Positions 13,255-55,321 of a stretch of DNA of 55,440 nucleotides are shown one piece after another (the first letter of the stretch is position 1; every line of letters starts with the position of its first letter). The stretch is from an uncultured virus (IMG/VR IMGVR_UViG_3300042295_000410). Taxonomy: Duplodnaviria; Heunggongvirae; Uroviricota; Caudoviricetes. The notes under the pieces are model-generated. The model was not told the origin of the DNA. It saw only the letters and a list, made by a program, of their open reading frames with translations, and did no database searches. The stretch is from IMG/VR virus record IMGVR_UViG_3300042295_000410; one strand, given 5' to 3'. A program made the translations under genes and the position numbers.

Positions 13255-13569
13255 AGACTGTATGAAGTAGACAGAAAAGGATTCAAGACGCGGGGGCAGT
13301 GCCCGCCAGGTCCACCATAAAACATATTTCCGACAGTAGGCGGAGGTGACAATGTCCATTCGGGTGAGTATGTTTTATAATGGGCCTGACACAGGATCGA
13401 TTGGGTCAAGAGTATTGAAATGGACAGTCCGGCAATGTAGAAGCCGTTAGGATTGGGGTGACCCGGTCGCAGAAGCAAAAAACCTAAATGCAAACGATGC
13501 ATACTTTGGAGAAGACCGCCTAGCAGCGTGATCTCCACGAGGTAGTTATACCTTGTCACCCAAAATAGC
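13255..13569 (+). ncRNA. ssrA: circularly permuted (two-piece) tmRNA; tag ANDAYFGEDRLAA
   Basis: 3' acceptor piece GCGGG-GGCAGTG-CCCGC-CAGGTCC-A-CCA (13290-13317) precedes 5' end GGGCCTG (13382) giving G3:U70; tag frame 13490-13531; outer ends approximate. Confidence 0.9.
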
Positions 13570-24727: not shown

Positions 24728-25084
24728 ATGTCAAAAGCAACTACATTCACCATCAAAAAAACCTATGCGTTGTCAGCAATTGACAAGGCAGGCAAGCGTG
24801 TCTATTACGACACTGATTCACACTCAGGCGGTTATCCGTATTGGAGCCCTTACTTCTCCCAAGACAAAACTTGGGAATCGCTGGACAAGATTCCAATATT
24901 CTCCAGCACAGACTACATGCGTCGAGACGTTGTCAGTATCGAAGTTCTGGAAGTCGAGATCCAAGCTAAAGTGATTCTAACTACTGAAATCATGTCAGAA
25001 GCCCGAGCAAAAGCCAAAGCAGAGATTACCCAAATTCGCAAAGAATTGGCCCGCAAACTTGCCATGTTGGAAGGCACAAAATGA
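24728..25084 (+). CDS. hypothetical protein
   Basis: 118 aa, AAGGA SD. Confidence 0.75.
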   Translation: MSKATTFTIKKTYALSAIDKAGKRVYYDTDSHSGGYPYWSPYFSQDKTWESLDKIPIFSSTDYMRRDVVSIEVLEVEIQAKVILTTEIMSEARAKAKAEITQIRKELARKLAMLEGTK

Positions 25085-26100
25085 CTAAAAAATATCACAC
25101 CCTAGTGCTCATTGGGCGCTTTCAACCATTTCACAGTGCTCACCTTGAGATTGTAAAACGTGCCACTGCCCTATGCGAACAGTTAGTAATTATCACTGGT
25201 TCTGCCGCACAACCCCGTACTTACAAGAATCCGTTCACAAGTGCAGAACGTGCGGGCATGATCAAATCGGCTACCCGTGGATTGAATATGCAAATCTACA
25301 TTGAACCCAATGTAGACACTATCTATAACGATCAAGCCTGGGCAGTGCGTATCCAAGGCATTGTCAGCAAGTATGCAGTCCTTGGTACCAAGACTGGTAT
25401 TATTGGACACAAGAAAGACGACAGTAGCTTCTATCTGGACATGTTCCCACAATGGGGATATGAAAACGTGGAACTGATTGAGTTCCTTAGTGCTGTTGAC
25501 ATTCGTGATCTTTACTTCAAGCGTGATGTCAACATGAAGTTCATTAAAGGTGTTGTGCCAGAAACTGTGTTTGAGTTCTTGGATGAATTCCGCCACCATG
25601 CCGAATATGAACAAATTATCCGTGAGCGAGAGTTTGTTGCAAACTATAAGAAACAGTATGCGTCATTGCCATATCCTCCAATCTTCAGCACTGCTGATAG
25701 TGTTGTGATCTGTTCAGGTCATGTGCTGATGATCAAACGCCGTGCAGAGCCCGGCAAGGGCTTGTGGGCACTGCCAGGCGGCTACGTCAACGCCAATACC
25801 GACAAGTCAGTTGAAGATGCGGCTATCCGTGAACTGCGTGAAGAAACTATGATTAAAGTGCCTGCTCCGGTGTTGCGTGGATCGATTGTTCGCAGTAAGG
25901 TATTTGATGCGGTTGACAGAAGTCCTAGAGGACGTATAATTACACATGCGTTTCACATCCAACTGCCAGACGGTGAGTTGCCAAAAGTAAAAGGCAGTGA
26001 CGATGCTGAGAAAGCACGTTGGGTACCTATTGCAGAGGTTCGAAGCGAAGAATGCTTTGAAGACCATTTTGAAATCATCTCACATTTTGTAGGAGCATAA
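25081..26100 (+). CDS. nadM: bifunctional NMN adenylyltransferase / Nudix ADP-ribose hydrolase (NadM-Nudix, NatV-like)
   Basis: IGRFQPFHSAH, KNPFT; Nudix box GG....K.VEDAAIRELREET; GSDDA. Confidence 0.93.
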   Translation: MTKKYHTLVLIGRFQPFHSAHLEIVKRATALCEQLVIITGSAAQPRTYKNPFTSAERAGMIKSATRGLNMQIYIEPNVDTIYNDQAWAVRIQGIVSKYAVLGTKTGIIGHKKDDSSFYLDMFPQWGYENVELIEFLSAVDIRDLYFKRDVNMKFIKGVVPETVFEFLDEFRHHAEYEQIIREREFVANYKKQYASLPYPPIFSTADSVVICSGHVLMIKRRAEPGKGLWALPGGYVNANTDKSVEDAAIRELREETMIKVPAPVLRGSIVRSKVFDAVDRSPRGRIITHAFHIQLPDGELPKVKGSDDAEKARWVPIAEVRSEECFEDHFEIISHFVGA

Positions 26101-26101
26101 T

Positions 26102-26344
26102 ATGAACGAACGAATTCGAGAACTTGCTGAACAGGCTACTTCCCACATGCCCGGACATCCTCCATACGACGGCTTGACATTTGACGTGTTCGATAAAGAA
26201 AAGTTCGCCGAGTTGATTGTGAGAGAATGTGTGGAACTTGTATCTGCCAACAGAGACCTGGCTATTGAAGATGGATGGAATGTGGATGAAGCAATGTCCA
26301 CAGCAATCAATGATATTGAAGAACATTTCGGAGTTGAAGAATGA
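26102..26344 (+). CDS. hypothetical phage protein (paralog of next ORF)
   Basis: EKFAELIVREC...EHFGVE. Confidence 0.75.
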   Translation: MNERIRELAEQATSHMPGHPPYDGLTFDVFDKEKFAELIVRECVELVSANRDLAIEDGWNVDEAMSTAINDIEEHFGVEE

Positions 26345-26592
26345 ACAAACAACTGATTAGAGATTTAGCCATCACAGGCGGCATTTATGATTGTATTTGT
26401 GATCCATACGACAAACTAGAGAACGGTGATTACTACAGTAGTGTAATGGTTGATTTGGAGCGTTTCGCTGAGAAGATTGTGAGGCAATGTGCTGAGATTG
26501 CTGATACGGAGAGACCCAATTCAGTTGGTTGTGGATATATTACCAAAACAAACGGTATGAGAATCAAAGAACATTTCGGAGTAGAACTATGA
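26341..26592 (+). CDS. hypothetical phage protein (paralog of previous ORF)
   Basis: ERFAEKIVRQC...EHFGVE. Confidence 0.75.
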   Translation: MNKQLIRDLAITGGIYDCICDPYDKLENGDYYSSVMVDLERFAEKIVRQCAEIADTERPNSVGCGYITKTNGMRIKEHFGVEL

Positions 26593-27062
26593 CATTAAAA
26601 CATACTAAAGGCAATCTGCTCGACCTGGCAGAAGCGGGAGACTTTGACATTGTTGTCCAAGGCTGTAACTGCTTCAACACCATGGGTGGCGGCATTGCTC
26701 GTGAGATTCGTGAGCGTTATCCAATGGCTGCATTAGTTGATAATGAGACCGTAAAAGGCGACTACCGCAAGTTGGGCAATTTTACCACAGCCTTTACCGG
26801 CAAGTTTTTGATTGTTAATGCTTACACTCAATACAATATGAGTCGCGGCACTGATGTATTTGAGTACACTGCCTTTCAATTGATTTTGGAAAAGCTGGCC
26901 TTTGTCTTTCCTGGCAAACGGATTGGCTTGCCCTATATTGGGTGTGGACTTGCCGGTGGCGAACAGGAAACTATTGTTGACATGATCGACGTATTTGCCG
27001 GACGAATTGCCCTTGAAGGCGGCACAGTCACACTAGTAGAATTTGGCCAAAGAATTAGTTGA
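26589..27062 (+). CDS. macro domain (ADP-ribose binding/hydrolase) protein
   Basis: KGNLL, QGCNC..TMGGGIA, PYIGCGLAGG. Confidence 0.9.
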   Translation: MTLKHTKGNLLDLAEAGDFDIVVQGCNCFNTMGGGIAREIRERYPMAALVDNETVKGDYRKLGNFTTAFTGKFLIVNAYTQYNMSRGTDVFEYTAFQLILEKLAFVFPGKRIGLPYIGCGLAGGEQETIVDMIDVFAGRIALEGGTVTLVEFGQRIS

Positions 27063-27141
27063 CGCAGACATAGGGTCTGTGTTATACTATAAACAAGTCC
27101 AAGCGATAGACGCCTGGCAATTTTGATAAAGGAACTTTATT

Positions 27142-28536
27142 ATGAAACTCGCAAAAAATCTTATTTTGAACACTGACAGCTACAAAGTCAGCATGTTCAA
27201 ACAATACCCAGCAGGTACTACAGGTGTATATTCATATATCGAGTCTAGAGGCGGGCGGTACGATAGAACAGTATTCTTCGGATTACAGGCTTTTATCAAA
27301 GAGTACCTTCTCGAACCCATCACCCAAGCAGACATTGACATCGCTGAAGAAATCCTTACCCTACACGGTGAGCCTTTCAACCGAGCAGGATGGCAATACA
27401 TACTGGACAAGCACCGTGGATACCTCCCAGTTGTCATTCGGGCCGTGCCAGAAGGAACTGTGGTCCCCGTCAAAAATGTACTTGCGACAATTGAAAACAC
27501 AGATCCAGAATGCTTCTGGTTGACCACTTGGTTGGAAACTGCCCTGCTTCGTGCAGTGTGGTATGGTACTACTGTGGCAACACAATCATACACAATTAAA
27601 CAAGTCATTCTTGACTTCTTGGAGAGAACTGGTGATCCTACTACTATCGATTTTAAGTTGCACGACTTTGGTGCTCGTGGCGTATCTAGCCTTGAAAGTG
27701 CTGGCATTGGCAGTGCCGCGCACTTGGTCAACTTTATGGGAACTGACACTATTACTGGTGTTCTGTTTGCTCGTGAATATTACAATGCTGGTATTGCTGG
27801 TTTCTCAATCCCAGCCGCAGAGCATAGTACAATCACCAGTTGGGGTCGTGACGGGGAAGTAGATGCTTACAGAAATATGCTTACCCAGTTCGCTCGTCCC
27901 GGTACTATCCTCGCTGTTGTCAGTGATAGTTATGATATCTACAACGCAGCCTCTAAGCTCTGGGGCGAAGAACTTCGCCAACAGGTTATCGATAGTGGTG
28001 CTACTGTTGTCATTAGGCCTGATAGTGGCGATCCTGTCGAAGTCAACCGTCGTCTAGTTGAAATCCTGGGCGAGAAGTTTGGCTACACAGTTAACGCTAA
28101 AGGATTCAAGGTACTGAACAATGTGCGTCTGATCCAAGGTGACGGCATCAACGAACTCACTGTTCGCAGTATCCTTGGTGCGTTCATGGCCATGGGTTGG
28201 AGTGCCGATAACATTGCTTTTGGTATGGGCGGTGCCCTGTTGCAGATTGTAGATCGTGACACGCAGAAGTTTGCCCTAAAAGCAAGTGCAGCCTGTATCA
28301 ACGGAACCTGGGTAGATGTCCAGAAAGATCCTGTCACTGATCCAGGTAAGAAAAGCAAGAAAGGCCGAGTCGAACTGTGGGAGTCCGGCGGAGAATATCA
28401 ATCCTCCGTAGAACAACCAAAAGGTTGGACTGATCGAGGACTCGAGTGGAAGTCTTCTCTACAGAAGGTATTCGAGAACGGCAAACTTTACAACGAGATT
28501 TCGTTCGAAGAAGTTCGAGCTAACGCTCGCAAATAA
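27142..28536 (+). CDS. nadV: nicotinamide phosphoribosyltransferase (NAMPT)
   Basis: TDSYK, LHDFGARG, PAAEHS, VSDSYD, IRPDSGDP, QGDG. Confidence 0.95.
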   Translation: MKLAKNLILNTDSYKVSMFKQYPAGTTGVYSYIESRGGRYDRTVFFGLQAFIKEYLLEPITQADIDIAEEILTLHGEPFNRAGWQYILDKHRGYLPVVIRAVPEGTVVPVKNVLATIENTDPECFWLTTWLETALLRAVWYGTTVATQSYTIKQVILDFLERTGDPTTIDFKLHDFGARGVSSLESAGIGSAAHLVNFMGTDTITGVLFAREYYNAGIAGFSIPAAEHSTITSWGRDGEVDAYRNMLTQFARPGTILAVVSDSYDIYNAASKLWGEELRQQVIDSGATVVIRPDSGDPVEVNRRLVEILGEKFGYTVNAKGFKVLNNVRLIQGDGINELTVRSILGAFMAMGWSADNIAFGMGGALLQIVDRDTQKFALKASAACINGTWVDVQKDPVTDPGKKSKKGRVELWESGGEYQSSVEQPKGWTDRGLEWKSSLQKVFENGKLYNEISFEEVRANARK

Positions 28537-28540
28537 AACT

Positions 28541-28579
28541 AACAAGGGGCTATACAACCCCTTGTTTTTATTGTATAAT
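28541..28579 (+). terminator. terminator hairpin overlapping a sigma70 promoter
   Basis: AACAAGGGG/CCCCTTGTT + U tract; TATACA in loop -17- TATAAT. Confidence 0.65.
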
Positions 28580-28613
28580 TTACACATAGCAACAAAACAC
28601 ACTGAAAGACAGT

Positions 28614-29720
28614 ATGACATATTTTTTGAAATCTGGTACACGATTTAATGTTTCCACTAAGGAAGCAATGGATCTACATGAGCAACTGCCTGTTGGCAAC
28701 TACACTGTTAAATTTGACAAGATGGCTGGCTGTTTCTATCTTGAAGCGATCGAAAGCTTCGAGATCCGCGGCAAGGTATACGGAGATACTCGCAAGCAGA
28801 GCCAACGTATTCTCAATACTTTCAATGACCGTACTGCATCCACTGGTGTAATGCTTACTGGTGAAAAAGGTTCGGGCAAGACACTGTTAGCCAAACTGTT
28901 GGCAGTCACTGCCGCAGAAGCGGCGGTGCCAACAATTGTTATCAACGAGCCATGGTGCGGTGAAGGCTTTAACAGCTTCATGCAGATGATTGAGCAACCC
29001 ACAGTGATCCTATTTGACGAGTTTGAAAAGGTCTACGACAAGGATGACCAGGAAAAGATGCTGACACTATTGGACGGTGTATATCCCTCCAAGAAGCTGT
29101 TCATTCTAACCTGTAACGACAAGTGGCGCATTGACAGCCACATGCGAAACCGTCCTGGTCGTATCTTCTACTCACTGGACTTCAAAGGTCTGGAACAAGA
29201 CTTCATTATGGAGTACTGTGCAGACAATCTGGACAATGTTGATCATATCGCCAGTGTATGCCGAGTTGCGGCAATGTTTGATCAGTTCAACTTTGACATG
29301 CTGAAGGCATTGGTTGAAGAAATGAATCGATACAAAGAAACTGCCAGCGAAGCTATGCGTATGCTCAACGCCAAGCCAGAGTTCGGTGGTGACAGCAAGT
29401 ACAAGGTTGCCCTGCAGATCAAAGGCCTAGACATTAATCCGGAGTTGATTGAGCAAGAAGTCTGGACAGGCAATCCACTGACCAATCGTGTCAGCATTGA
29501 CTACAAGGTCTTTGAAGATGCAAAGAGTGCTGAGCCAGCACTCGACGGTCTGGCTTCTATTGAAACAGACTGGAATTGGGAAGATGCTCGATTTGGTCAA
29601 GAAGATCTCAAGCAGATTGATGCAACTGCTGGTAAGTTTGTTTTCATTAACGAGGACGGTGACCGTGTGACACTGAACCGCATTAAAGAAAAGTACTACA
29701 ACTACATGGATGCATTTTAA
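28614..29720 (+). CDS. AAA+ ATPase
   Basis: GEKGSGKT, LFDEFEK, RPGR. Confidence 0.9.
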   Translation: MTYFLKSGTRFNVSTKEAMDLHEQLPVGNYTVKFDKMAGCFYLEAIESFEIRGKVYGDTRKQSQRILNTFNDRTASTGVMLTGEKGSGKTLLAKLLAVTAAEAAVPTIVINEPWCGEGFNSFMQMIEQPTVILFDEFEKVYDKDDQEKMLTLLDGVYPSKKLFILTCNDKWRIDSHMRNRPGRIFYSLDFKGLEQDFIMEYCADNLDNVDHIASVCRVAAMFDQFNFDMLKALVEEMNRYKETASEAMRMLNAKPEFGGDSKYKVALQIKGLDINPELIEQEVWTGNPLTNRVSIDYKVFEDAKSAEPALDGLASIETDWNWEDARFGQEDLKQIDATAGKFVFINEDGDRVTLNRIKEKYYNYMDAF

Positions 29721-29822: not shown

Positions 29823-29987
29823 TAGGTTAGGTGCAGCAATTTTCATTTAATATGGACTGCTAGACCCTATGGTGTTGAATTGGAGCACAGAGTCTTGACC
29901 GAGTGCGTTGAAGAGTCAACATTGAAATAGACTAGCGAGCTCAGAGTGGTGGCCTGAGTTGAATAAAAGCAGCCGACAACTAACCTG
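29823..29987 (+). ncRNA. CAGCAA-box RNA copy 1 (165 nt, multi-branched insert)
   Basis: AGGTTAG/CTAACCT stem, GTG, CAGCAA; internal helices. Confidence 0.7.
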
Positions 29988-30048
29988 TTTTATTTTATAG
30001 CACTACAACTGAATTGAACCTCAGACGAACGTGTGCTATAATTGATCC

Positions 30049-30287
30049 TAGGATGGATTCAGCAATTAAAACAATACTAAAGTTAAATGCCATAGAAAGT
30101 GGTTGTAGGACACAGTGGAGATACTGTTCTAGGAAACTAGACACTCAAGGAATGGATGACACAAGGGAAAGACTTTGTATGTTTCTAACGCAGACACAAG
30201 TTTAGATAGTCAACATGAATTGTCGATAGGGTCTGGGTGCTATAATTGGCCAGACCAGAAAATAAACAAATTGGCACACCCATCCTG
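30049..30287 (+). ncRNA. CAGCAA-box RNA copy 2 (239 nt, multi-branched insert)
   Basis: AGGATGG/CCATCCT stem, ATT, CAGCAA; internal hairpins. Confidence 0.7.
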
Positions 30288-30293
30288 CTTGTA

Positions 30294-30335
30294 TAGGTTA
30301 TATACAGCAAAATTTTTTAATTTAAAAGTAACCTG
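30294..30335 (+). ncRNA. CAGCAA-box RNA copy 3 (minimal, abuts SD of DUF2828 gene)
   Basis: AGGTTAT/GTAACCT stem, ATA, CAGCAA; AAGGA SD follows immediately. Confidence 0.7.
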
Positions 30336-52784: not shown

Positions 52785-52931
52785 ATGCAATCGTCCAATA
52801 GACATCAACAATTTAATACGATGCCCAAACAGGTAGGTGTAATAGCCTGCGGTTGGTTATCGATTAATGCGGGAAGTCTATCATATGATCGTACACCAGA
52901 GATTTCTAGGGTCCGGAGGACTGTCGTGTAA
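52785..52931 (+). CDS. putative attenuator leader peptide (48 aa, all 20 amino acids)
   Basis: MQSSNRHQQFNTMPKQVGVIACGWLSINAGSLSYDRTPEISRVRRTVV; last codons complementary to the terminator 5' arm. Confidence 0.6.
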   Translation: MQSSNRHQQFNTMPKQVGVIACGWLSINAGSLSYDRTPEISRVRRTVV

Positions 52932-52956
52932 CACACAAGTTAACACAACAAACTTC

Positions 52957-52995
52957 AAGGACCCTAGGATTAAAAACCCTGGGGTTTTTTGTTTT
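52957..52995 (+). terminator. intrinsic terminator with competing antiterminator
   Basis: ACCCTAGG/CCTGGGGT + TTTTTTGTTTT; alternative pairing 52905-52918 with 52953-52969. Confidence 0.8.
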
Positions 52996-53371: not shown

Positions 53372-53460
53372 GGAGCTTGTCCCCCATTGCCAGCTGTAAC
53401 CTGGTAGCCATTATTAAGTGGGGTGGCTGGCAAGAGGTTCAATTCCTTCAGGCTCCACCA
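53372..53460 (+). tRNA. tRNA-Tyr(GTA)-like, D-arm absent, 8/4 fold
   Basis: GGAGCTTG/CAGGCTCC-A-CCA; GCCAG-CT GTA AC-CTGGT; long variable arm; TTCAATT T-loop. Confidence 0.7.
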
Positions 53461-53650: not shown

Positions 53651-53679
53651 TTGACAAATTCTACATAAGATTGTATAAT
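53651..53679 (+). promoter_or_regulatory. internal sigma70 promoter in tRNA array
   Basis: TTGACA-17-TATAAT. Confidence 0.88.
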
Positions 53680-53687
53680 TACATTAT

Positions 53688-53803
53688 GCGACCGTAAGTG
53701 GAATATGGCAGACCTCCCGTTATGCTCATAGCATAGGTCAGGGGAAGGGGCACATAACATAGTTACCGTGCTCTTGTAGGTTCGAGACCTACCGGTCGTA
53801 CCA
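53688..53803 (+). tRNA. oversized Leu-scaffold tRNA-like RNA (116 nt), anticodon uncertain (CAT loop on extended arm)
   Basis: GCGACCG/CGGTCGT-A-CCA; Leu-type D arm and long variable arm; normal T arm. Confidence 0.6.
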
Positions 53804-53807
53804 GTTT

Positions 53808-53869
53808 TAGGATCAGTTCAGCAAACTTAAAAACTTTTTTATTATTCAAAAAAACCAAAGTTGATCCTG
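53808..53869 (+). ncRNA. CAGCAA-box RNA copy 4
   Basis: AGGATCA/TGATCCT, GTT, CAGCAA. Confidence 0.7.
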
Positions 53870-53878
53870 TTTTATTAT

Positions 53879-53953
53879 GTATCCCTAGTGTCAGCGGCAG
53901 CACGCCGGTCTCCAAAACCGTTAGGCTTGGTTCAAATCCAAGGGGGTATGCCA
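53879..53953 (+). tRNA. tRNA-Trp(CCA)
   Basis: Cloverleaf, CT CCA AA, G73, CCA. Confidence 0.9.
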
Positions 53954-53957
53954 GTTT

Positions 53958-54014
53958 TAGGATGCGTCCAGCAAATCAAAAAATTCAACTTTTAATTGAA
54001 AAATAAGCATCCTG
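53958..54014 (+). ncRNA. CAGCAA-box RNA copy 5 (carries Lys(UUU)-like anticodon loop)
   Basis: AGGATGC/GCATCCT, GTC, CAGCAA; TTCAA-CTTTTAA-TTGAA. Confidence 0.72.
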
Positions 54015-54022
54015 TTTTTTGT

Positions 54023-54096
54023 TCCCGGATTGTGTAATGGTAGCACAACAGACTTTGACTCTGTTAGCCTAGGTTCGATCCCTAGTCCGGGTGCCA
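54023..54096 (+). tRNA. tRNA-Gln(TTG)
   Basis: Cloverleaf, ACAGA-CT TTG AC-TCTGT, CCA. Confidence 0.93.
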
Positions 54097-54190: not shown

Positions 54191-54205
54191 CCTAAGCAGT
54201 TTATT

Positions 54206-54247
54206 CCTCTTGTAGTTAAATGGTATAACAATCGCTTTCCTGGCGAG
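54206..54247 (+). pseudogene. truncated tRNA (5' acceptor strand, D arm, anticodon arm; no T arm)
   Basis: CCTCTTG-TA-GTTA-AATGGTA-TAAC-A-ATCGC-TTTCCTG-GCGAG then late promoter of the endonuclease. Confidence 0.6.
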
Positions 54248-54274
54248 CGTTATAAATACTTGTAGGAGAACACT

Positions 54275-54676
54275 ATGAGTATATCAAACGAAAAAGGTGA
54301 AATAGGAGAAGCAGCATTTGTGCTCGTTTCTGCCAAAAGAGGATATTGGACTGGCAAAATGCCACAAGGTTGTCCTTATGATTATGTGTTAGATAGACAC
54401 GACGGTAAACTTTTACGAATTCAAGTTAAGTTTAGATCGTTAGAAAGTAACGGAATAGTTACAATTAAACTATCTCAAAACACATTTACAAATAGAGTTT
54501 CTTACAATGAAAGTAACATCGATTATATTGCAGTCTATGTAAATGAATTAGATAAAGTATATCTCGTTCCTATTGCAGAAATATGCGATGTAAAAGAAGT
54601 TAAACTGCGATGTGTAGAATCAACAAAAAGAAAAGATAAAAACTCTCGTATAATAACAGAATACGCAGAGTGGTAA
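54275..54676 (+). mobile_element. free-standing PD-(D/E)XK homing endonuclease (I-Ssp6803I-like) in tRNA array
   Basis: KGEIGE, PYDYVLD, RIQVK, Y....IDYIAVY; TATAAATA and AGGAG upstream. Confidence 0.8.
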
Positions 54677-55091: not shown

Positions 55092-55098
55092 ATTTTAT

Positions 55099-55174
55099 CC
55101 TTGAGTTAAGCGGGGCCGTATACACCCTTGCCAATAGTTAGTAATGTGTACTGCGACATACACCTCGAGGGCCA
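55099..55174 (+). ncRNA. 76-nt tRNA-like RNA without canonical D, anticodon or T loops
   Basis: CCTTGAG/CTCGAGG-G-CCA acceptor stem; GTGTA-CTGCGACA-TACAC in T-arm position. Confidence 0.6.
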
Positions 55175-55181
55175 AGTTTAT

Positions 55182-55258: not shown

Positions 55259-55321
55259 TAGGATACTTACAGCAAACCAAAATATTTCACTTTTTGGCTG
55301 TGAAAAGCAAACAGTATCCTG
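55259..55321 (+). ncRNA. CAGCAA-box RNA copy 6
   Basis: AGGATAC/GTATCCT, TTA, CAGCAA; TTTCAC/GTGAAA hairpin. Confidence 0.7.

Follow-up and report, generated by a model that had tools for sequence, protein, structure and literature searches.

Cleavage of tRNA is a common bacterial defence, and the published phage answers to it that we found are resistant tRNAs and repair ligases. The tRNAs with which phages counter such defences are complete, decoding, and cleavage-resistant (PMC12409363, PMC12445682, PMC10264068). The nuclease AriB targets tRNAs with the anticodons UUU, UGU, GUU, and CGU, whose common core is U36AAU39; it requires contacts outside the anticodon arm, the D-loop included, and a tRNA given only the AriB site by grafting was still not cleaved (PMC12409363). 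T5 tRNA-Lys counters PARIS/AriB, and the substrate of PrrC is a Lys(UUU) loop with a t6A-type modification at A37 (PMC12409363).

The Y RNAs YrlA and Yrn1, which accompany Ro60/Rsr, have a handle near their paired 5' and 3' ends and a tRNA-mimicking module (PMC4201824, PMC12135203). In phage Bas63, gp130 was called Ro60-like and located upstream of a tRNA cluster in which the authors guessed at Y RNAs without identifying them (PMC11482910). Gp130 counters the Ppl defence, the sole phenotype known for such a partner (PMC11482910). Since Ppl is described as an ssDNA exonuclease (PMC12904381), this phenotype gives no pointer to tRNA. In a Listeria phage, very abundant non-coding transcripts lie within 2 kb of a Ro-like gene (PMC12282133). 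The Class I RNAs of Dictyostelia (Rfam RF01414) are approximately 60 nt long with 32-41% GC and have a short closing stem, an invariant 5' G, a CUGU end, many copies, a variable interior, and a CAGCAA-ending box beside the 5' strand; they bind the RRM protein Rnp1A, and these RNAs are reported to be unique to Dictyostelia (PMC7919456).

In this study, we analysed a CAGCAA-boxed unit in the tRNA array of an uncultured tailed phage. The window is the whole stretch of DNA analysed (55,440 nt). A first-pass annotation of its sequence had proposed that the fifth unit copy presents a free-standing tRNA-Lys(UUU) anticodon stem-loop, possibly as a decoy or inhibitor of anticodon nucleases.

Scans and controls

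Viral contigs were scanned with a pattern fixing only the outer frame of the unit, CAGCAA itself being imposed by the scans. At least 138 loci were obtained, and 139 distinct units are listed. The main statistics were taken from this strict frame scan only; looser scans catch chance matches in coding DNA. The null model consisted of 300 dinucleotide shuffles of the inserts. The unit finder misses variants, and the units of phages 6ec and Fnu1 came from RF01414 instead. Loci with short flanks (8 of 80 viral and 5 of 27 genome-contig loci) were dropped from the gene-neighbourhood counts. The coordinates of copies 1-3 were taken from locus L130, whose DUF2828 protein is identical. AriB site positions were taken from PMC12409363; the AriB data come from E. 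coli, which need not be the host of this phage.

The unit, its array, and the DUF2828 gene

A 98.6-kb virus record, with an estimated completeness of 28%, contains the window, and the source is therefore a jumbo phage, large and of freshwater type. Copy 5 lies within a long tRNA array, between tRNA-Trp and tRNA-Gln (Table 1), with T-runs on both sides as around the neighbouring tRNA genes. The unit pattern was found at three places in the window, where 0.07 would be expected. Over 3058 nt of this array, a second record (G001) has the identical sequence, and it continues further. Shortly beyond the window lies copy 7, with an Asn(GUU) loop, and G001 contains two further copies with a T arm, in one of which a 4-bp stem also closes a Tyr(GUA) loop.

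Table 1. Positions of the units and neighbouring features in the window.
Feature	Position	Strand	Remarks
CAGCAA unit copy 1	29824..29987	+	164-nt structured insert in the same frame; precedes the DUF2828 gene
CAGCAA unit copy 2	30050..30287	+	same frame, 238 nt; long structured insert
CAGCAA unit copy 3	30295..30335	+	minimal 41-nt frame, with its end at the DUF2828 ribosome-binding site
DUF2828 + DUF7788 protein, 465 aa	30348..31745	+	Pfam; PHROG 850; Ro60-like ring (HEAT + vWA); putative binding partner of the frame
Sigma-70-type promoter consensus	53651..53679	+	putative, by a perfect match to the consensus; lies 5' of copies 4 and 5
CAGCAA unit copy 4	53809..53869	+	same frame; 6-bp A/U stem, non-canonical 7-nt loop AT-TAT-TC (53841-47); RF01414 24.3 bits
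tRNA-Trp(CCA)	53879..53953	+	directly 5' of copy 5; ARAGORN
CAGCAA unit copy 5, 56 nt	53959..54014	+	7-bp closing stem 53959-65/54007-13, CAGCAA 53969-74, CUG end; RF01414 29.4 bits (cut-off 41.5)
Anticodon stem-loop mimic of copy 5	53984..54000	+	5-bp stem TTCAA (53984-88)/TTGAA (53996-54000), 7-nt loop CT-TTT-AA (53989-95), Lys(UUU) anticodon at 53991-53993; top pair A31-U39; U40-G41
tRNA-Gln(UUG)	54023..54096	+	directly 3' of copy 5; ARAGORN
CAGCAA unit copy 6	55260..55321	+	same frame; 6-bp stem, 9-nt loop containing GG; RF01414 29.4 bits

From 5' to 3', copy 5 consists of a closing strand, 3 nt, CAGCAA, an A-rich linker, the hairpin, a second A-rich linker, the other closing strand, and a G. 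The stem and loop letters are those read in the first-pass annotation, and the hairpin has the features of a tRNA-type anticodon arm (5-bp stem; 7-nt loop Y32 U33 N N N R37). The annotation was also right that no other tRNA arms accompany it: the D arm, T arm, and CCA are all absent, the 3' end being CUG plus a T-run, and neither ARAGORN nor Rfam RF00005 called a tRNA at copy 5. No Rfam family matched the unit at its gathering score. The phage has its own tRNA-Lys(UUU), which carries U39 and whose GC-rich stem differs from that of copy 5; a recent tRNA duplication was rejected on that ground. An armless tRNA was likewise rejected, given the missing CCA and the long asymmetric linkers.

Several other elements were seen in and around the array. 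At the head of the tRNA operon, a 48-codon leader ORF is followed by a strong hairpin and a T-run (52785-52995) in an attenuator-like arrangement, and relatives' contigs cover this region in all four metatranscriptomes compared. Three tRNA-like genes with an acceptor stem and CCA end were missed by ARAGORN at its default score (53373-53460, 53687-53803, and 55097-55175); in the second, an extended arm ends in a CAT loop. Also within the array, a PD-(D/E)XK endonuclease ORF comes after a truncated tRNA-like start (54202-54676), possibly as a homing insertion. Past the window end (approximately 56563-56764 in extended coordinates), a stem and CAGCAA unit with a 200-nt insert and a T-loop-like hairpin lacks the G..CUG frame. 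A permuted two-piece tmRNA (13256-13531; RF04321, 101.9 bits) gives a hint to the host group. As to expression, no sequencing run searched contained half of the query words; the four metatranscriptomes yielded contigs from relatives, one of which covers 53877-54011 with 20 differences and gives neither ends, strand, nor level.

The DUF2828 product models as a Ro60 fold. Its AlphaFold2 model has a pLDDT of 81, and all 13 Foldseek matches at E <= 0.001 were Ro60/TROVE proteins, with a best TM of 0.57-0.58 and 11-18% identity to the solved Ro60s. The fold search alone gave Ro60: a PDB sequence search with the protein returned nothing, and the Pfam search gave no TROVE match. In 70 of 72 viral loci and 11 of 22 genome-contig loci, the 700 nt preceding DUF2828 include a same-strand unit; none was found on the reverse strand or within the gene in those loci. 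In most viral loci a short copy, like copy 3 here, ends at the DUF2828 ribosome-binding site; copy 3 is a possible autoregulatory site for the gene. The loops of these UTR copies are non-canonical. Copies 1-3 adjoin the gene, from which 22 kb separate copy 5. The inserts of copies 1 and 2 (29824-30287) have counterparts of similar length in the corresponding position in numerous relatives. Directly before copies 1-3 are genes for an Nmnat-NUDIX protein, a macro-like phosphatase, Nampt, and an AAA ATPase (25081-29720); NAD salvage is linked to counter-defence, and together with DUF2828 this region looks like a counter-defence island.

Matches to the DUF2828 protein occur in 710 cultured-phage records. 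Units stand beside DUF2828 or in an adjacent tRNA cluster in wV8, Bas63, RSP15, LP-125, Chaser, 6ec, and Fnu1; in Chewbecca the finder gave none in the region examined. T4 and T5 are without a DUF2828 gene, and the finder gave no unit in the tRNA regions of these two phages. Bas63 gp130 is 43.6% identical to the DUF2828 protein of the window, and the Bas63 tRNA cluster contains four CAGCAA units. Sister copies with T arms occur in G001, Bas63, wV8, RSP15, and Chaser.

Conservation of the anticodon arm

Taken singly, the hairpin of copy 5 is unremarkable. The isolated 17-mer is not above chance (MFE 0 kcal/mol, z 0.38); when the whole 56-mer is folded, the MFE structure moves the inner stem to an 8-nt loop, and in the centroid structure this stem is unpaired. 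The two strands of the 98.6-kb record together contain 15 CT-NNN-AA loops on 5 bp, namely eight in tRNA genes, two in CAGCAA units (copies 5 and 7), and five elsewhere. The hairpin stands above chance because its homologues conserve it and not because of its own folding.

A YU-NNN-RN loop on at least 4 bp was found in 75 of the 139 listed units (shuffle mean 7.4, max 14), and CU-NNN-AA on at least 5 bp in 52 (shuffles 0.4, max 3). After clustering at 85%, the counts were 24 of 52 listed (shuffles 2.5, max 9) and 12 of 52 listed (shuffles 0.2), respectively. The best hairpin had a 7-nt loop in 69 of the 139 listed units, compared with 10.9 in shuffles. When sites were selected by loop alone, 62 of 79 CT-N3-AA sites in the listed units had a closing stem of 4 bp or more (shuffles 1.3, max 6), and N1, N2, N4, and N5 loops gave 1, 3, 4, and 1 paired sites. 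Among the matches listed, 51 distinct loop-selected 17-mers had 81.6% of cells paired versus 52.1%, with two-sided changes at all five pairs (80 versus 27; 0/500 shuffles) and at most 53% pairing in slid-register controls. Pairs 6 and 7 of the closing stem, which the scan leaves free, were paired in 138 and 137 of the 139 listed units, in four pair types. What changes across the listed homologues is the anticodon and the letters of the stem; the pairing, the length of the loop, U33, and R37 stay conserved. One phage clade dominates the sample; hence, these counts are not independent events and P-values overstate.

The arm also recurs outside the main stem type. In units from all loci with other stem types (not AGGAT), filtered to AT >60% and still containing chance matches, a canonical loop was present in 27 of 157 (shuffles 6.6, max 15) and CU-NNN-AA in 18 of 157 (shuffles 0.9, max 4); the Ser(GCU) arm of mycobacteriophage Chaser likewise stands on a different stem. 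A separate lineage (L519, L524, L538, L575, L581, and L608) closes a Lys(UUU) loop with an A-C mismatch at 31-39, which falls outside the pairing rule used. Pattern matches, some with a full closing stem, were also seen in giant-virus contigs (GVMAG; L013, L046, L535, L536, and L541), a possible bridge to amoebae.

A canonical loop is lacking in 64 of the 139 listed units, copy 4 included, and in all four Bas63 units under the YU-NNN-RN rule; 28 of those 64 still have a 7-nt loop on at least 5 bp (shuffles 11.6, max 21). The first-pass reading of copy 6 as Gln(UUG)-like fares poorly: its loop is 9 nt, and the G36-G37 class accounts for 7 of the 64 listed non-canonical homologues at 4 bp or more (shuffles 0.9, max 4) and 2 of 64 at 5 bp or more.

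The 75 listed mimics display UUU (20), UGU (12), UCU (6), GUA (5), GGA (5), GCU (4), and rarer others, all being real tRNA anticodons that mostly end in U or A. Orthologues replace Lys by Thr, Asn, Arg, Ser, Tyr, or Cys, and the arm is thus not Lys-specific; Lys(UUU) is nevertheless approximately 10-fold over-represented in the mimics relative to real tRNA genes. Ser anticodons make up 17 of 127. Position 34 of the listed mimics is U in 47, G in 23, C in 4, and A in 1, though the inserts are 46% A and chance hairpins have A34 in 185 of 623. Position 36 is U in 52, A in 21, G in 2, and C in 0; U or A thus occupies it in 73 of 75, compared with 454 of 800 real tRNAs from the same loci. U39 accompanies NNU anticodons (76 of 85) more than NNA ones (17 of 34). 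Stem GC is 0.23 in mimics and 0.62 in tRNA arms, and none of 47 distinct listed mimic arms is within 1 nt of a tRNA arm from the same loci, which argues that the mimics are not fresh tRNA fragments.

The AriB core was compared in the same way. Mimics with the four AriB-target anticodons have U36AAU39 in 56 of 60 cases versus 86 of 176 phage tRNAs; for Lys alone, the counts are 34 of 35 and 15 of 39. The copy-5 stem class displays UUU (14), UGU (9), GUU (2), CGU (1), and no other anticodon, exactly the four reported AriB targets; this match is post hoc, and the four are single-step neighbours of one another. Copy 5 has the core U36-A-A-U39, with U40-G41 in place of the AriB cut site C40|A41 and no D-loop. 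The full cut site is present in 8 of 59 Lys/Thr/Asn mimics. Resistant T5 tRNA-Lys has A39 and C41. By its sequence, copy 5 offers the Lys(UUU) loop context of PrrC; its stem has no paired CNG, the P2-OLD criterion (PMC12445682).

At the level of sequence, these comparisons establish copy 5 as a small non-coding RNA gene of two-part design, with a conserved handle and a swappable cargo. The handle, comprising the closing stem, CAGCAA, and the CUG end, is found in company with the DUF2828 gene; roughly half of the short tRNA-array copies bear as cargo an anticodon arm under apparent selection, Lys(UUU) in copy 5. The hairpin is thus very probably a selected mimic of a tRNA anticodon arm; the first-pass annotation had already called it a mimic. 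That annotation had also allowed for a chance match in AT-rich DNA, which stands for the lone hairpin and falls once the homologues are counted; the enrichment of YU-NNN-RN loops that it had suggested counting is present, and the loops do not vary freely.

Readings of the unit and comparison with known systems

Our main reading is that a Y-RNA-like handle presents an anticodon-arm decoy against tRNA-targeting defences, to which we give a probability of roughly 0.45. The unit would be co-transcribed with the tRNA operon and cut out like a tRNA spacer unit; the DUF2828 ring would bind and protect it through the handle, leaving the weak A/U hairpin exposed. The arm could then act as bait or competitive inhibitor of host nucleases that read Lys, Thr, Asn, and related anticodon arms. 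This would complement the tRNAs of the phage itself, in which that recognition motif tends to be avoided. The reading is favoured by the agreement of the copy-5 stem class with the AriB target set and by the retention of U36AAU39; the NAD-salvage neighbours of DUF2828 and its anti-defence homologue in Bas63 also fit it. It is weakened by the Ppl phenotype of that homologue, the missing C40|A41 and D-loop of copy 5, a hairpin that barely folds unaided, the many listed units without a canonical loop (those of Bas63 included), and the phage's own tRNA-Lys(UUU) with U39.

The bias to U or A at position 36 fits A37-modifying enzymes equally well. U36-A-A is the t6A context and A36-A-A the i6A context. 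The mimics could accordingly serve a Ro60-like RNP that recruits or titrates tRNA-acting enzymes (the t6A/i6A modifiers, ligases, or exonucleases) for phage tRNA maturation or repair, a role also suggested by the T arms or long inserts of sister copies, by the RtcB and RNA ligase genes that follow DUF2828 in Listeria phage LP-125, and by the PNPase-binding phiRo60-Yrl phage RNP, Y RNAs being PNPase tethers (PMC12135203). If positions 36-38 alone were read, neither the strong surplus of Lys(UUU) and Thr(UGU) nor the near-absence of A34 would be expected, and an unsystematic look at the 28%-complete record recognised no RNA ligase; we consider such an adaptor unlikely. The arm might instead be a tripwire, whose cleavage by a host nuclease frees or alters the DUF2828 protein to set off a counter-response while the 5'-UTR copy autoregulates. 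The mimic does retain host-like sensitive features, its labile stem would suit a substrate, and copy 3, like the short copy of most viral loci, ends at the ribosome-binding site; however, no output of the DUF2828 protein is known, the UTR copies have non-canonical loops, and a passive decoy fits the same data, so that a sensor is less likely still.

Real anticodons, a 7-nt loop, and U33 are what the ribosome or LysRS, ThrRS, and AsnRS read, and the arm might bind ribosomes or anticodon-reading synthetases and bias decoding during infection. Against this stand the common Ser anticodons, as SerRS does not read the anticodon, and the real tRNAs with the same anticodons that the phage itself supplies and with which such an RNA would compete; we regard a translational role as improbable. 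Lowest in our estimate is a functional handle around a neutral loop, which would be either a hairpin formed by chance in AT-rich sequence or the remains of a decayed tRNA passed down within one clade. The modest folding of the single hairpin, the five such hairpins outside tRNAs and units, and the dominance of one clade agree with neutrality, but on sequence grounds it is largely refuted by the specific loop size, the avoidance of A34, the covariation seen at each of the five pairs, and the reappearance of the arm in a mycobacteriophage and on other types of stem.

No published description of the RNA was found in the literature, the main text of the Minerva preprint, or most supplements of PMC8040213; subscription journals and bioRxiv supplements lay outside the scope of the search. 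The link to a DUF2828 gene of Ro60 fold and the likeness to Class I RNAs go beyond the first-pass annotation.

In design the unit is Y-RNA-like. As with YrlA and Yrn1, a handle near the paired ends is joined to a tRNA-mimicking module; several RNAs occur per locus, and copies 1-3 lie beside the gene of a Ro60-fold protein, copy 5 being farther off. By inspection, however, copy 5 lacks the YrlA motif GNCGAAN(0-1)G/CGAA, its box being CAGCAA, and lacks the tRNA-like D/T-arm domain, T arms being confined to some sister copies (PMC4201824 for the YrlA features); Rfam scans gave no YrlA match. Unlike Ro60, the DUF2828/DUF7788 protein, the putative partner of the unit, has no TROVE Pfam match.

The units also share with Class I RNAs the short closing stem, invariant 5' G, CUGU end, many copies, and variable interior, and the CAGCAA-ending box stands at the same spacing from the 5' strand (PMC7919456). 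Sizes and compositions are close: copy 5 has 56 nt and 32% GC, and the listed units have medians of 58 nt and 34%. Of the 11-nt Class I box positions T3, C6, C9, A10, and A11 (PMC7919456), copy 5 has all but the first, which is G3; T at position 3 occurs in only 55 of the 139 listed units. Phage units overall score 20-29 bits against RF01414, and copies 4-6 score 24-29 bits, below the cut-off of 41.5 (copy 5, E 7e-5 within the record). RF01414 picked the DUF2828-linked units in all three phages tested (Fnu1, 6ec, and Bas63); weak matches also came from 3 of 14 control genomes and, in T4, from one site. Dictyostelid hosts, a DUSE promoter, and Rnp1A binding characterise Class I RNAs, whereas the units are phage-borne and the record has sigma-70-type promoters. 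Homology between the two is possible by sequence. When DUF2828 was sought in dictyostelids, the ESM Atlas listed only virus-dominated clusters. Table S4 of PMC7919456 includes a rejected Arabidopsis outgroup match, with 40 bits on the Class I model of its authors, that has the stem, ACAGCAA, and CUG layout. Plant papers mention DUF2828 genes, and plant members are possible.

It would be a bolder and doubtful step to regard DUF2828 and the CAGCAA RNAs as a second, widespread Ro60/Y-RNA system of reprogrammable anticodon-arm sponges against tRNA-cutting immunity, and the source or relative of Class I RNAs. A decoy on a protein-protected handle would be a further counter-defence strategy and would give DUF2828, the family found in those 710 cultured-phage records, a ligand and a role. 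For the Class I RNAs, a class whose mechanism is not known, the likeness offers a candidate protein partner and a candidate origin. The known defence-countering phage tRNAs decode and resist cleavage, and they avoid the host-like motif; the copy 5 RNA cannot decode and keeps that motif. The unit resembles Y RNAs in design but falls outside YrlA by motif and domain and below the Class I cut-off by score.
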